DNA of 64,000 bases, taken from the NCBI RefSeq assembly GCF_016026235.1, contig NZ_CP065613.1. One strand, given 5' to 3'. A program made the translations under genes and the position numbers. The notes under the pieces were generated by a model. That model was not told where the DNA came from, did not search any database, and saw nothing but the letters and a program-made list of their open reading frames with translations. Below, piece by piece: positions 12,081-63,154 of the stretch (within the stretch, counting starts at the first letter, position 1; the number at the start of each line of letters is the position of its first letter). This stretch comes from Escherichia coli. GTDB lineage: Bacteria; Pseudomonadota; Gammaproteobacteria; Enterobacterales; Enterobacteriaceae.

Positions 12081-12358
12081 AAACCTGTAGCAGGATCAAA
12101 AGAGTGGCGGGAAGCGTGGCAAAAACGGGCTTTTGCTCACATTTCAAATGGTTATAAACATATTTATATAGCGATTAATTCACCAGAGATATTTCTGCTG
12201 GTTTGTTCTCTCACCAGAATTTAACACTAAAAGAGCAGGTAAAATTGTCTGAATGTTCTTTAAGTTATTCATAAAGCAAATTAATAAATCTGATGAATAT
12301 GTTAACCTTCAGCGACATCATCGGTGAAAACCTATAAATGAAGAAGGAAAGCAAAAAA

Positions 12359-12847
12359 ATGAAGACCATTCTACCTGCAGTATTGTTTGCCGCTTTCGCC
12401 ACCACTTCCGCCTGGGCGGCAGAGAGCGTCCAGCCACTGGAAAAAATCGCGCCTTATCCACAAGCTGAAAAAGGCATGAAGCGTCAGGTGATTCAGTTAA
12501 CCCCGCAAAAAGATGAATCTACCCTGAAAGTAGAACTGTTAATCGGTCAGACGCTGGAAGTCGACTGCAATTTGCATCGTCTCGGCGGGAAGCTGGAAAG
12601 CAAAACGCTGGAAGGCTGGGGCTATGATTATTATGTCTTTGATAAAGTTAGCTCGCCGGTTTCCACGATGATGGCCTGCCCGGATGGCAAGAAAGAGAAG
12701 AAATTTGTCACCGCGTATCTGGGCGATGCTGGAATGCTGCGTTACAACAGCAAGCTGCCGATCGTGGTGTATACGCCAGACAATGTAGATGTGAAGTACC
12801 GCGTCTGGAAGGCGGAAGAGAAAATTGACAACGCGGTAGTTCGCTAA
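12359..12847 (+). CDS. eco: Ecotin, periplasmic serine protease inhibitor (162 aa)
   Basis: ORF track 169 aa; start moved to [20 protein letters not shown] matching ecotin precursor. Confidence 0.93.
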
Positions 12848-13335
12848 ACTGCCGTGAAGTGCGGCACCCCGTAGGTTGGATAAAGCGGTCACGCCGCATC
12901 CGACATCTAACGCCCGAGCCGGTTGCCTGATGCGACGCTGACGCGTGTTATCAGGCCTACACCGCTGTGAAGTGCTCCACCCCGTAGGTCGGATAAGGCG
13001 GTTACGCCGCATCCGACATCCAACGTCCGAGCCGGTTGCCTGATGCGACGCTGACGCGTCTTATCAGGCCTACACCGCTGTGAAGTGCTCCACCCCGTAG
13101 GTCGAATAAGTCGGTTACGCCGCATCCGACATCTAACACCCGAGCCGGTTGCCTGATGCGACGCTGACGCGTGTTATCAGGCCTACACCGCTGTGAAGTG
13201 CTCCACCCCGTAGGTCGGATAAGGCGGTTACGCCGCATCCGACATCCAACGTCCGAGCCGGTTGCCTGATGCGACGCTGGCGCGTCTTATCAGCATACGC
13301 CACATCCGGCATACCATGCCGGATGTGGCACATCA
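12848..13335. repeat. Tandem REP/BIME array, four units of about 110 bp plus a terminal 14-bp-stem palindrome at about 13299-13329
   Basis: Repeated gccgcatccgacatc...gcctgatgcgacgctg...cttatcaggcctaca units; ORF track shows the same MRRNRLIRPTGWSTSQRCRPD peptide in several overlapping ORFs. Confidence 0.9.
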
Positions 13336-14994
<1,659 letters not shown>

Positions 14995-15197
14995 TTACTT
15001 TTAGTCGCTTTATTGCAGGTGAGATTTGCGCGGCATCAACGGTAACACTTAAGTAACAACATTTAAATAATGTTTATAAATTATATTCTAATTTTAGAAA
15101 CATTATAATTTCGTTGATTAATTATAAGGGCATTGCAAAGGCGGGATTTTCAGGATATTTACCTGGCGGCAGAACGCCGCCAGGCTGGAACAGAACA

Positions 15198-16841
15198 TCA
15201 CGCAGTACGTGCAACTGCGTCGCGGGAAGCTGCGTCACGCTCCGCACCAGTCAGTTCACTCAGTTGCCCACTGCGCATCTCCAGCAGGCGGTCAGCGTGG
15301 ATAAAGTAATGATCGTCATGACTAATGGCGAATATGGTTTTACCCATCTCCTGCATCAGCGGCAGCAACACCTGATAAAACTCACGACGGAAGTGTGGAT
15401 CCTGATCCGCCGCCCATTCATCCAGCAGGATAATATCGCGTTCTTCTGCCAGCGCCAGCAACAGCGCCACGCGTTTTTTCTGCCCTTTTGATAACTTCAG
15501 GTTAACAATACGCCCGTTGCTTAACTCAATCTTATGAGCCATTTTCAGCTGCGCCAGCCACTTCTCAACCAGTTGCGGGTTAGCGGGTTTACCCTCCGGC
15601 CCCAGCAGTTGATCAAACAGCCAGACATCGGTAAACACTGCCGAAAACAGTTTGCGATAATCTTCCGGTTGTTCGCCGCTGACAGGTTTGCCATCCAGCA
15701 AGATTTCGCCGCTTTGTGGCTGATACAAGCCCGTCAACAACATCGCCAGCGTCGATTTTCCGCTACCGTTGCCGCCAATCAGAAACAGCAGCTCGCCACG
15801 TTTGATGGTGAGATTAATCGGACCAACGGAAAACGCGTTATCCTGATAAGCAAACGTCACGTTACGCAGCTCCAGCGTTTGCCAGTTGGGAAACGCCTGC
15901 GGGCACGGAAACTCTGCTTTGAAAGGCGCGAGCGCGAATTTGTTCAGCTTGTTAAACGCCACCTGCGCCGTCAGCAGCGTCGGCAATGCGCCAACCGCCG
16001 AAAGCAGCGGCGTACGCAGGAATAAAAGCGTCAACGAATAGGTCGCAGCAACGTTGGTATCAGCCCAACCGAGACTGTTCGCCATCCAGAACACCAGGCC
16101 GATAGCGCCCAGCATCATGATGTTTGACCAGTTCACGGCACTAAGATGGAAGGTGTCTGCGCGGATAATATGATGGCGATACTCTTGCGCATCAGGAATG
16201 TAGAGGTTGTTAAACACATACTCGGCGCGTTCCCGGTTCAGAGTCAGCTCTTTGCGCCCTTCAAGTACAGTTTGAAAATCCGTGTACAGCTTGTCTTCGG
16301 TTTCACGCAGGGTCGCCATATGTTTGTACACCCGCGCCACCAGCAAAAAACCGCCCCAGATGGTGATCGCCATCCAGATAGCCGTTACCAGCAACATTTT
16401 GCCCGACAGCATCCACAGATACGCCGCGGAACCGATAGTGAGAATGATCCCCTGCACAAGTTCCGGCAGACGCACAAAAGCAATGGTGATATTGCGCACA
16501 TCGCTGGTTAATCCCGCCAGCAACGAGGCGCTACCGAGTTGTTCAATGCGCTCGACGTGGGTATCCAGAATCCGCTTGATAAATTCACTACGCAGTCGGT
16601 AAACGAAGTGATGCCCCAAAGTGGTGAGCGCCAGTTGCGATCCGAGAGTGACTGCCATCAACAGCAGCAATAATCCCAGAAACTCCGGCAACACCAGCAG
16701 ACTGGTATCCGCCGTTTCGATAAGGCGCTGATTGATAAAAGCAATTAAGCCAATGCCTAAAGCCGCACTGGCGAGGCTTAGCGCCATCACACTGATAAAT
16801 GGCCAGCGATACTGCCGCCAGACAAGTACAAGAAGTTCCAT
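15198..16841 (-). CDS. yojI: ABC transporter, fused permease/ATPase (microcin J25 efflux family, 547 aa)
   Basis: N-terminal TM domain plus C-terminal Walker [10 protein letters not shown] and LSKGQKKR signature; K-12 synteny. Confidence 0.9.
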
Positions 16842-21200: not shown

Positions 21201-21333
21201 ATTACGGAATGGCGAAATAAGCACCTAACATCAAGCAATAATAATTCAAGGTTAAAATCAATAACTTATTCTTAAGTATTTGACAGCACTGAATGTCAAA
21301 ACAAAACCTTCACTCGCAACTAGAATAACTCCC

Positions 21334-21426
21334 GCTATCATCATTAACTTTATTTATTACCGTCATTCATTTCTGAATGTCTGTTTACCCCTATTTCAAC
21401 CGGATGCCTCGCATCCGGTTTTTTTT
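21334..21426 (+). ncRNA. micF: MicF antisense sRNA (93 nt)
   Basis: Sequence gctatcatcattaactttatttattaccgtcattcatttctgaatgtctgtttacccctatttcaaccggatgcctcgcatccgg + U8 matches MicF incl. terminator; divergent from ompC. Confidence 0.93.
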
Positions 21427-25077: not shown

Positions 25078-28012
<2,935 letters not shown>

Positions 28013-48860: not shown

Positions 48861-49041
48861 TATTGAGATGCCGGATGCGGCGTAAACGCCTTATCAGGCC
48901 TACGGCTCGGTTTGTAGGCCTGATTAGACGCGCCAGCGTCGCATCAGGCTCCGGGTGCCGGATGCAGCGTGAACGCCTTATCCGGCCTACGGCTCGGTTT
49001 GTAGGCCTGATTAGACGCGCCAGCGTCGCATCAGGCACAGG
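48861..49041. repeat. Two tandem REP/BIME units between nrdA and nrdB
   Basis: Direct repetition of gccggatgcggcgtaaacgccttatc(a/c)ggcctacggctcggtttgtaggcctgattagacgcgccagcgtcgcatcaggc. Confidence 0.85.
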
Positions 49042-61948: not shown

Positions 61949-62920
61949 ATGACCGAATCAACAACCTCCTCCCCGCATGATGCGGTATTTAAAACCTTTA
62001 TGTTCACACCCGAAACCGCACGGGATTTTCTCGAAATACATTTACCAGAACCACTGCGCAAGCTTTGTAACCTGCAAACCTTACGCCTGGAACCCACCAG
62101 TTTTATTGAAAAAAGTTTACGCGCTTACTACTCGGATGTTTTGTGGTCCGTGGAAACCAGCGACGGTGACGGTTATATCTACTGCGTGATTGAACATCAA
62201 AGCTCTGCAGAAAAGAATATGGCTTTTCGGCTAATGCGCTATGCCACTGCCGCCATGCAGCGTCACCTGGACAAAGGCTATGACAGAGTCCCGCTGGTGG
62301 TGCCGTTGCTGTTTTATCATGGCGAAACCTCGCCTTACCCGTACTCACTCAACTGGCTGGATGAGTTTGACGATCCGCAACTTGCCCGGCAGTTGTACAC
62401 CGAAGCTTTTCCGTTGGTGGATATCACCATCGTACCTGACGATGAGATCATGCAACATCGGCGTATAGCTCTGCTGGAACTGATTCAAAAGCATATTCGC
62501 GACCGCGATTTAATCGGTATGGTCGACAGGATCACCACGCTTTTGGTTAGAGGCTTCACTAATGACAGCCAGCTACAAACACTGTTTAATTATCTGCTGC
62601 AATGCGGCGATACCTCCCGTTTCACCCGTTTTATTCAGGAGATTGCCGAACGTTCACCACTACAAAAGGAGAGATTAATGACTATTGCTGAACGGCTACG
62701 GCAGGAAGGGCATCAAATTGGCTGGCAGGAAGGTAAATTAGAAGGTTTGCAGCAAGGTAAATTGGAGGGTCTGCAGAAAGGTAAATTAGAAGGTTTGCAG
62801 GAAGGCATGCATGAGCAAGCCATTAAAATTGCCTTGCGCATGCTGGAGCAGGGCTTTGAACGTGAGATTGTGCTGGCGGCAACCCAACTCACTGATGCTG
62901 ATATTCCGAACTGTCATTAA
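61949..62920 (+). CDS. yfaD: Rpn-family (YhgA-like) PD-(D/E)XK nuclease, 323 aa, with internal in-frame SD+ATG at 62667-62680
   Basis: N-terminal region with D63...E82-x-Q84 nuclease-like motif ([25 protein letters not shown]); C-terminal GKLEGLQ repeats; K-12 synteny after glpC. Confidence 0.85.
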
Positions 62921-62929
62921 AAGGAGAGA

Positions 62930-63154
62930 TTGATGACTATTGCTGAACGGCTACGGCAGGAAGGACATCAAATTGGCTGGCAAGAAGGTAAATTAGTAGG
63001 TTTGCAGCAAGGTAAATTAGAAGGTTTGCAGGAAGGCATGCATGAACAAGCTATTAAAATTGCCTTGCGCATGCTGGAACAGGGCATTGATCGTGACCAG
63101 GTGCTCGCGGCCACCCAGCTAAGCGAAGCCGATCTGGCAGCGAATAACCACTAA
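62930..63154 (+). CDS. ypaA: Small ORF duplicating the C-terminal module of YfaD (74 aa)
   Basis: [21 protein letters not shown]...[15 protein letters not shown] nearly identical to YfaD residues 244-303, preceded by the same aaggagagatt SD-like sequence. Confidence 0.65.
   Translation: MMTIAERLRQEGHQIGWQEGKLVGLQQGKLEGLQEGMHEQAIKIALRMLEQGIDRDQVLAATQLSEADLAANNH

Follow-up and report, generated by a model that had tools for sequence, protein, structure and literature searches.

REP sequences are a family of palindromic units that is associated with the RAYT (TnpA-REP) tyrosine transposase. Two types of element built from them are of interest for the present study. In BIME-2, a REP and an inverted REP alternate with short linkers, and the tandem copies are well conserved at each locus while their number varies between strains. 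BIME-1 elements consist of one y and one z1 REP, joined by a long L linker in which an IHF site is often found (Ton-Hoang et al., PMC3333891). The TnpA-REP protein cleaves sites of the TGCC|TGAT type (PMC3333891).

BIME-2 elements exceed the genome average on the DNA gyrase motif, their y REPs are cleaved by gyrase much more often than their z2 REPs, and their gyrase signal goes up when transcription is blocked by rifampicin (PMC6379681). For BIME-1 the Topo-Seq results given in the same source describe a depletion of gyrase sites (PMC6379681). Table DS3 of that study (Sutormin et al. 2019, PMC6379681) contains, for strain W3110, a BIME-2 entry named 'eco>-<mqo' with a length of 654 bp, 11 ciprofloxacin, 7 rifampicin + ciprofloxacin, 2 microcin B17 and 5 oxolinic acid cleavage sites and the remark 'Espeli, Boccard 1997: 6 cuts'. 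Among the Table DS3 entries examined it is the longest and the most-cut BIME-2. A supplementary table of Harris et al. 2026 (bioRxiv 10.64898/2026.03.23.713779) includes a K-12 hairpin at 2305063-2305108, with an 18-bp stem and −33.4 kcal/mol, among the previously mapped bidirectional terminators, where it is labelled eco:mqo, REP161 and convergent. We use the name REP161 from this table, because the annotation of NC_000913.3 contains no REP repeat_region features.

A second well-studied array, REP325, was found in published experiments to be a partly Rho-dependent terminator and an mRNA stabiliser. It has also been published that REPs between convergent genes accompany higher expression of both genes. 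Finally, REPs serve as insertion sites: the natural target of IS621 is the 11-nt ATCAGGCCTAC with a CT core (PMC11208160).

Here we describe the array that lies between the convergent genes eco and mqo in a stretch of 64,000 nucleotides of Escherichia coli DNA, referred to as the window. Judged by its sequence, the array is a four-unit allele of the known and experimentally studied K-12 array REP161, and as such it was already known. As a textbook BIME-2 array, in experimental use since 1997, the locus has little discovery value.

Structure of the array

Positions 12848-13335 are the complete 488-bp intergenic gap between eco and mqo, an exact fit according to both the list of open reading frames and the RefSeq annotation (Table 1). 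Tandem Repeats Finder reported a single tandem array at 12854-13293 with a period of 113, 3.9 copies, 93% matches, 0% indels and a score of 775, which is far above chance and makes it the strongest tandem repeat within the 64-kb window. An independent seed-and-extend search found the copies head-to-tail with start-to-start spacings of 113, 113 and 113, and the unit starts stand in register. The fourth unit is cut off at the foot of its z2 REP; it ends in …ATCAGCATACG where the other units have …ATCAGGCCTAC, and the CTAC foot of the last z2 REP is lost. All four units can be distinguished from each other, the closest pair being units 2 and 4 with 98.2% identity.

An earlier note on this DNA, made from the letters alone, had described the region between convergent eco and mqo as a tandem BIME/REP array, and the repeat, the REP positions and the gap coordinates all agree with it. 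Its four direct repeats of an approximately 110-bp unit were confirmed as tandem repeats, with the corrections that the unit measures 113 bp and that the last one is truncated. The same note had called the array unusually regular. This did not hold, as MG1655 has six units, some of them mutually 100% identical, and other strains have seven; "unusually" is unsupported because the four-unit allele is of intermediate length and found in a minority of genomes.

Table 1. Coordinates of the eco–mqo array and its surroundings in the window. Energies are predicted values.
Feature	Position	Strand	Remarks
eco (ecotin) CDS	12359..12847	+	RefSeq start; ORF open from 12338; stop TAA 12845-12847
BIME-2 unit 1	12849..12961		113 bp; naRNA4 score below gathering
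Small eco-proximal hairpin	12850..12866	+	UGCCGU/GCGGCA, 6 bp, -8.5 kcal/mol
y REP 1	12871..12905	+	GTAG-first; 29/35 to y consensus; -15.1 kcal/mol
z2 REP 1	12925..12960	-	GTAG-first on minus strand; IS621 target ATCAGGCCTAC at 12950-12960
BIME-2 unit 2	12962..13074		113 bp; Rfam naRNA4 75.3 bits at 12987-13070
y REP 2	12984..13018	+	GTAG-first; 32/35 to y consensus; -20.2 kcal/mol
z2 REP 2	13038..13073	-	IS621 target at 13063-13073
BIME-2 unit 3	13075..13187		113 bp; y REP decayed
y REP 3	13097..13131	+	GTAG-first, degenerate; -6.9 kcal/mol
z2 REP 3	13151..13186	-	IS621 target at 13176-13186
BIME-2 unit 4	13188..13299		cut off at z2 REP foot; Rfam naRNA4 64 bits at 13213-13295
y REP 4	13210..13244	+	GTAG-first; -20.2 kcal/mol
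z2 REP 4	13264..13299	-	foot mutated, CATACG for CCTACG; without IS621 target
Terminal perfect hairpin	13299..13329		arms 13299-13312/13316-13329; 14-bp stem, 3-nt loop
mqo (malate:quinone oxidoreductase) CDS	13336..14982	-	convergent with eco; stop 13336-13338

The E. coli y, z1 and z2 REP consensus sequences were taken from the methods of Durrant et al. 2024 (PMC11208160). Every unit consists of one y REP and one inverted z2 REP, with linkers of 19 nt from y to z2 and 23 nt from z2 to the next y, so that the two oppositely oriented REP palindromes per unit mentioned in the earlier note were located in all four units, y on the plus and z2 on the minus strand. The four y REPs agree with their consensus at 29-32 of 35 positions and the four z2 REPs at 34-35 of 36 aligned positions. 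When the z1 consensus was sought in the array, no match reached 60% of the maximum score. GTAG is present in all four y REPs, CTAC in z2 REPs 1-3 and CATAC in z2 REP 4.

The predicted REP hairpins contain internal-loop mismatches. Compared with the consensus, the y stems carry a compensated pair, GTCGGAT…ATCCGAC replacing GCCGGAT…ATCCGGC. As isolated RNA hairpins the z2 REPs are predicted at -15 to -21 kcal/mol. The weakness of y REP 3 (predicted -6.9 kcal/mol, versus -20.2 kcal/mol for y REPs 2 and 4) comes from two stem substitutions that disrupt pairing and are uncompensated, a sign that selection on the individual hairpins may be weak. The entire gap was predicted to fold with -218.1 kcal/mol on the plus strand (z = -5.7 versus dinucleotide shuffles) and −238.8 kcal/mol on the minus strand (z = −5.9). 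At the other edge of the array, the small eco-proximal hairpin is confined to unit 1, because the internal units have GTGCTCCA and not GTGCGGCA.

In all the sequence-level features by which the family is defined, the array is a BIME-2. It contains y and z2 REPs only, without z1; the REPs alternate in orientation, are separated by short linkers and form tandem copies; GTAG precedes imperfect palindromes whose stems contain a mismatch; the array is extragenic and fills the eco–mqo gap; and its copy number is strain-variable, with 1 to 7 units among 115 genomes. Because of a 226-bp higher-order repeat in the array and its location near 2.3 Mb, the replication risk sequences RRS/TRIP1 (222-bp GC-rich repeats 650 kb from dif) were also considered. 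These were rejected, as they are located near dusC and lysO (PMC10592627) and not at eco–mqo.

The terminal hairpin

The array ends beside the mqo stop in a hairpin, for which the earlier note had given a 14-bp stem. The stem was found to be perfect: its arms are 100% complementary, it starts 6 nt past the mqo stop, and its predicted energy is about -28 kcal/mol (-27.8) on either strand. Within the 64-kb window this hairpin was found once only. Its arms resemble the distal arms of the y REP at 14 of 15 and 12 of 15 positions, and by this resemblance it looks like a y-REP remnant that has been turned into a perfect palindrome.

A scan of 12200-15300 with consensus promoters and terminators detected no intrinsic-terminator-like sites or T-runs in 12848-13335, and no promoter within the eco–mqo gap. 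Of the two parts of an intrinsic terminator the hairpin is present and a direct U-tract is absent, and because of the missing U-tract the terminal hairpin is not a canonical intrinsic terminator. Its K-12 counterpart is nevertheless the hairpin at 2305063-2305108 that Harris et al. 2026 include with the bidirectional terminators. According to Liang et al. 2015, as summarised in PMC12306157, REPs less than 16 nt from a stop codon lower translation. The terminal hairpin lies inside this <16-nt zone, and the first y REP, 23 nt from the eco stop, lies outside it. By analogy, translation of mqo may be lowered by the hairpin.

Copy number and allelic variation

Of 5426 complete E. coli genomes, 5421 have the eco and mqo flanks together. 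To count the units we used queries that contained the flanks only (700+700 nt, then 300+1100 nt), so that the match span gives the gap length. Two evenly spaced samples of 60 records were taken down the ranking of the 5421 genomes, and 115 were scored after de-duplication. As the census was systematic and not exhaustive, its proportions are approximate: one unit (gap about 149 bp) was found in 76 genomes (66%), including O157:H7, O55:H7, ST131, Nissle 1917 and APEC O1; two units in 2 genomes; three in 1; four in 5 (about 4%), including the window's own record; five in 7; six in 17 (15%), including MG1655, W3110, DH10B and ATCC 8739; and seven in 7. In one further record the locus is split by an insertion sequence. 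None of the 115 sampled E. coli genomes had lost the last unit or the terminal hairpin. The earlier note had named such arrays as hotspots of copy-number variation and had proposed to count the units at this locus across E. coli genomes; in our count they range from 1 to 7 in exact 113-bp steps, and four units is a minority, intermediate state.

Thirteen E. coli alleles were read unit by unit. The edges of the window allele are those of the one-unit O157:H7 allele, with an identical first y REP and linker on one side and an identical last z2 REP, hairpin and GGCACATCA on the other, and with three extra units between. Its flanks are closest to O157:H7 and O55:H7 as well (99.1-99.3%). In NCTC10444, a separate assembly, the gap is again 488 bp and units 1-3 are one base different from those of the window; in unit 4 the y half and the linker are replaced by a unit-3-type copy, with six further differences. 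The same private variants, GCTGACGCGTGTT and CGAATAAGTCGG, recur in YZMc3-1 with three units, in 23CRST030 with two and in the mosaic four-unit array of 100181.

The four units of the K-12 derivatives C600-p2-V and CY706 equal the MG1655 array minus 226 bp. This is a different allele from that of the window, and therefore "four units" arose more than once. In NCTC122 and BE2-5 the first repeat is 121 bp long, with a junction, …ACACCGCT|AAACTGCCG…, at which sequence from the eco stop-codon region is used again; this points to an exchange across the microhomology CGCT. The recombination interval between the one-unit O157 allele and the window allele contains plain homology and a TnpA-REP-type site, TGCC|TGAT. 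Compared in this way, the alleles show a continuing gain, loss and conversion of units in the 113-bp register.

Outgroups were found with a degenerate pattern of the Mqo C-terminus, which gave three non-coli Escherichia genomes. E. albertii NBRC 107761 has a gap of 772 bp with seven y REPs at spacings of 111-115 bp, Escherichia sp. E1V33 (cryptic clade) a gap of 376 bp with three units and the same terminal hairpin, and E. whittamii a gap of 307 bp with three y REPs. As an array with a 113-bp period exists in three other Escherichia, the array at this site predates E. coli, and the simplest view of the one-unit alleles is that they are contractions. The units of E. albertii have lineage-specific linker variants in common (CCAATCCCGGAGCCG) that do not occur in E. 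coli, which we take as a sign of homogenisation within the array; the mean identity differs little, being 89.5% within arrays versus 89.1% between species.

Proposed function

The reading that we prefer, with a probability of roughly 0.9, is that of a four-unit REP161 BIME-2 allele that would act as a gyrase cluster at the DNA level and as a terminator and stabiliser at the RNA level, and whose unit number changes by recombination or slippage. The structure, the family at the sequence level, the orthology with K-12, the presence throughout the genus and the polymorphism of the array come from the comparisons above; for its function we infer from the K-12 allele and from REP325.

By analogy with the six-unit K-12 allele, the y REPs would be the preferred sites of DNA gyrase binding and cleavage. 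The gyrase hotspot that the earlier note expected is documented for the K-12 allele of this locus, with the 6 cuts of 1997 and the 11 Topo-Seq sites. At 6 cuts in 6 units K-12 shows about one cut per unit, which suggests a transcription-independent cluster of strong gyrase sites. Such a cluster would lie at the point towards which the convergent transcription of eco and mqo drives positive supercoils from both sides.

In the transcripts, stable hairpins would be part of both 3'UTRs. By analogy they may terminate or attenuate transcription in both directions and hinder 3'-5' exonucleases, and the terminal palindrome beside mqo would probably be the strongest and most important of them. Because there is no U-tract, termination would be partly Rho-dependent. 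The number of units would shift via unequal recombination or slippage between units, with a possible involvement of TnpA-REP cleavage at C|T.

Several observations limit this reading. Two of the four y REPs are weakened (y REP 1 at -15.1 and y REP 3 at -6.9 versus -20.2 kcal/mol), which counts against function. Two thirds of the E. coli genomes have one unit, and thus the extra units cannot be essential. In addition, as reported in the 2026 preprint, REPs do not uniformly lengthen mRNA half-lives genome-wide.

Alternative explanations

The array could instead be a neutral, selfish remnant of the REP/RAYT system, in which unit number drifts by slippage and the gyrase cuts and transcript ends are by-products. 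We consider this possible, though doubtful, for the array as a whole; for the extra units it is a serious alternative, because two thirds of the strains have one. One unit is the commonest state within the range of 1 to 7, the stems of y1, y3 and z2 in units 1 and 3 carry uncompensated substitutions, and laboratory derivatives of K-12 differ, with 6 units in MG1655, W3110 and DH10B and 4 in C600-p2-V and CY706. Published accounts also describe REP effects as context-dependent and often absent. However, E. albertii, E. whittamii and Escherichia sp. E1V33 have an array of the same 113-bp period at this site, and 0 of 115 sampled E. coli genomes have lost the last unit or the terminal hairpin. 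A neutral remnant is also harder to reconcile with the scan, which found no other terminator between convergent eco and mqo, and with the score of BIME-2 elements on the gyrase motif, which is above the genome average (PMC6379681).

That the number of units is a lineage-specific tuning dial and not the result of neutral drift seems improbable to us. If it were so, gyrase recruitment would change with contraction to one unit, as in O157:H7, ST131, Nissle and APEC O1, and likewise with expansion to 4-7 units, as in K-12, ATCC 8739 and the window strain. Unit number would then also influence how efficiently transcription of eco and mqo is terminated or their mRNAs are stabilised, and a TCA-cycle enzyme and a protease inhibitor would be expressed at other levels while promoters and coding sequence remain untouched. 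The persistence of the 113-bp period across several Escherichia species would in that case reflect selection.

The Rfam model naRNA4 (RF02564) derives from the y–z2 unit of REP325. It matches all four units on the eco-sense (plus) strand with 75.3, 64, 56.2 and 54.5 bits; relative to its gathering score of 59.5 bits, units 2 and 4 are above and units 1 and 3 (56.2 and 54.5 bits) below. One might conclude from these matches that the units are genes for naRNA4-like nucleoid-associated RNAs, which would bind HU, bridge REP cruciforms and condense the chromosome, especially as Qian et al. 2015 proposed a condensing role for the homologous REP325, for which homologous sequences may substitute. To us this is very improbable. 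The model also matches BIME-2 elements at 25087-25163 and 48917-48987 elsewhere in the window, and because of these two it is in effect a generic detector of y–z2 BIME-2 units. Moreover, an author of the original claim belongs to the group behind the 2026 preprint, in which nucleoid volume is reported to be unchanged after REP325 deletion or overexpression; in the experiments that the preprint describes there is no stable HU–cruciform–naRNA4 complex, and REP–REP pairs are without long-range contacts. The HU-binding, nucleoid-condensing RNA role is thus largely refuted for REP325, and its function is disputed.

Repeats may also be collapsed or expanded during assembly, and the unit count would then be an artefact. 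The 488-bp array of 113-bp units is longer than short reads, laboratory K-12 derivatives show differing unit counts, and the only 100% match is one record, FDAARGOS_943 (NZ_CP065615.1), which is probably the window's own source. Nevertheless, we give this explanation scarcely any credence. Collapse mainly hits identical copies, and the four units are mutually distinct (98.2% for the closest pair); the separately assembled NCTC10444 has a near-identical four-unit allele with the same 488-bp gap; and related alleles of 2, 3 and 4 units carry the same private variants. The genomes of FDA-ARGOS and NCTC3000 are presumably long-read assemblies.

According to the earlier note, arrays of this kind are also known for IHF binding, and a BIME-1 or RIB/RIP element acting mainly through IHF would fit that general statement, which is the one argument in its favour. 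We regard this as next to excluded. In the family definition the IHF site is a feature of BIME-1 alone (PMC3333891), and the y + z1 pair with a long, IHF-binding L linker that characterises BIME-1 was not found: there is no z1 REP in the array, the linkers are 19 and 23 nt long, and the IHF consensus WATCAANNNNTTR has no exact match in the array, the best candidate having 2 mismatches. IHF binding, being a property of BIME-1, was therefore not retained.

The array also contains four overlapping minus-strand ORFs, at 12539-13012, 12907-13125, 13002-13238 and 13133-13336, which share a ...RQRRIRQPAR..LDVGCGVT... core and of which the first three begin MRRNRLIRPTGWSTSQRCRPD, together with two identical 32-aa plus-strand ORFs. 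Searches of the array ORFs against Pfam and NCBIfam gave no significant match, only MetW with E = 0.05, below its cut-off, and the RefSeq annotation of the identical genome has no CDS inside the array. That they are phantom ORFs with near-identical peptides, as had been noted before, agrees with this shared repeat core. Genuine small repeat proteins can be dismissed, since in spite of minus-strand ORFs of 67-157 aa with ATG starts these are REP palindromes in translation, lack family matches and annotation, and change in number or vanish with the unit count, a one-unit allele being unable to encode them.

IS621 insertion and use of the locus

The 11-nt IS621 target ATCAGGCCTAC occurs three times on the plus strand of the window array, starting at 12950, 13063 and 13176. 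In strain 2017-02-2CC (NZ_AP027764.1) an IS621 element of the IS110 family is inserted into the first z2 REP of a four-unit array, with the junctions …TTATCAGGCCT | IS | ACACC…. The IS insertion that the earlier note had mentioned for such arrays thus occurs at this locus too, and the window array offers three ready-made natural targets for this bridge recombinase.

With 1 to 7 units in steps of 113 bp, the array is a VNTR-like marker, and short-read assemblies can miscount it. The alleles also form a natural series in which the length of a BIME-2 could be tested against gyrase recruitment or against termination of convergent genes. The four spurious ORFs of the array are worth suppressing by ORF callers.

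Comparison with known systems

IS621, as an IS110-family bridge-RNA recombinase, is related to the array through its targets: the 11-mers of the window correspond to the position occupied by IS621 in 2017-02-2CC, but all sites in the window are empty. BIME-1 (RIB/RIP) elements are members of the REP superfamily too, and like the array they lie outside genes at 3' ends, but they have a z1 REP, a long L linker and an IHF site, none of which is found in the array.

REP325 / naRNA1-6 (yjdM–yjdN; RF02564) likewise consists of tandem alternating y and z2 REPs, and by analogy the expected mode of action, as terminator and mRNA stabiliser, would be the same. In contrast to the present array REP325 has six units with another spacer, lies between tandem genes of one operon and is without a terminal perfect palindrome.

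The closest system is REP161 of K-12, which in MG1655 fills an eco–mqo gap of 714 bp (2304394-2305107). The locus, the flanking genes, the 113-bp y–z2 unit, the truncated last z2 REP and the terminal palindrome are the same, and the units of the window are on average 93.7% identical to those of MG1655. The two alleles differ in the number of units, six in MG1655 and four here, and in their edges, which are of the O157:H7 type in the window, with a first y REP of GTAGGTTGGATAAAGCGG versus GTAGGTCAGACAAGGCGG in K-12. The window allele furthermore has private variants, namely the GCTGACGCG loops, the CGCGTGTT stem change in units 1 and 3 and the decayed y REP 3, and its terminal stem is 14 bp long as compared to 18 bp (-27.8 versus -33.4 kcal/mol).

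Variation in the number of repeat units

Unit number at the eco–mqo array differed among K-12 derivatives: four units in C600-p2-V and CY706, and six in W3110 and MG1655 (three sequences), a difference of 226 bp. This reflects either an array change on laboratory time-scales or a collapse in some of the assemblies. In strains NCTC122 and BE2-5 the first repeat was 121 bp instead of 113 bp, with the junction (slash) …ACACCGCT/AAACTGCCG…, and the eco stop-codon region was present in duplicate. Because the junction duplicates this region, we infer that duplication of the unit took place across a 4-bp microhomology, CGCT, which extends into the eco end.

The open frame of eco extends back to an ATG at 12338 (169 aa), whereas the RefSeq start in the strain of the window is 12359 (162 aa). 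The longer form, 510 nt, is annotated in some other strains.

Insertion of IS621

IS621 is an IS110-family element with a bridge-RNA recombinase. In strain 2017-02-2CC (NZ_AP027764.1; positions 1-1768 of the gap between the two genes) the eco–mqo array had four units and IS621 interrupted the first of its z2 REPs; the junction, ATCAGGCCT/AC, was the known natural target of IS621. Three copies of the target 11-mer were also found in the BIME-2 array at 48869-49036 of the window, at 48893 (+), 48914 (−) and 49001 (−).

Other features and the terminal palindrome

Location of the terminal palindromes, further BIME-2 elements and other features (window positions except for MG1655; naRNA4 is the Rfam model of the REP325 y–z2 unit)
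Feature	Position	Strand	Details
Terminal palindrome, window	13295-13333		GGCACAT
Terminal palindrome, K-12 MG1655	2305063-2305108		GGCGTAT
BIME-2 element	25087-25163	(-)	Rfam naRNA4, 76 bits
BIME-2 element	48869-49036		Rfam naRNA4, 71.1 bits; 87-bp period, 1.9 copies
MicF antisense sRNA, full-length	21333-21426	(+)	Rfam RF00033, 116.8 bits
323-aa ORF	61949-62920	(+)	
24-bp tandem repeats	62725-62805		3' end of the ORF
24-bp tandem repeats	62985-63036		just downstream of the ORF

The repeats inside the 323-aa ORF encode (Q/K)GKLEGLQ repeats; its product resembles, we presume, an Rpn/YhgA-like recombination-promoting nuclease.

At the mqo end, the 5' arm of the terminal palindrome contained an inserted CC in other eco–mqo alleles, and the arrays of E. 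albertii and E. whittamii were without the terminal hairpin. The terminal stem of REP161, the MG1655 counterpart of the array, was 18 bp (−33.4 kcal/mol), compared with 14 bp (−27.8 kcal/mol) in the window.
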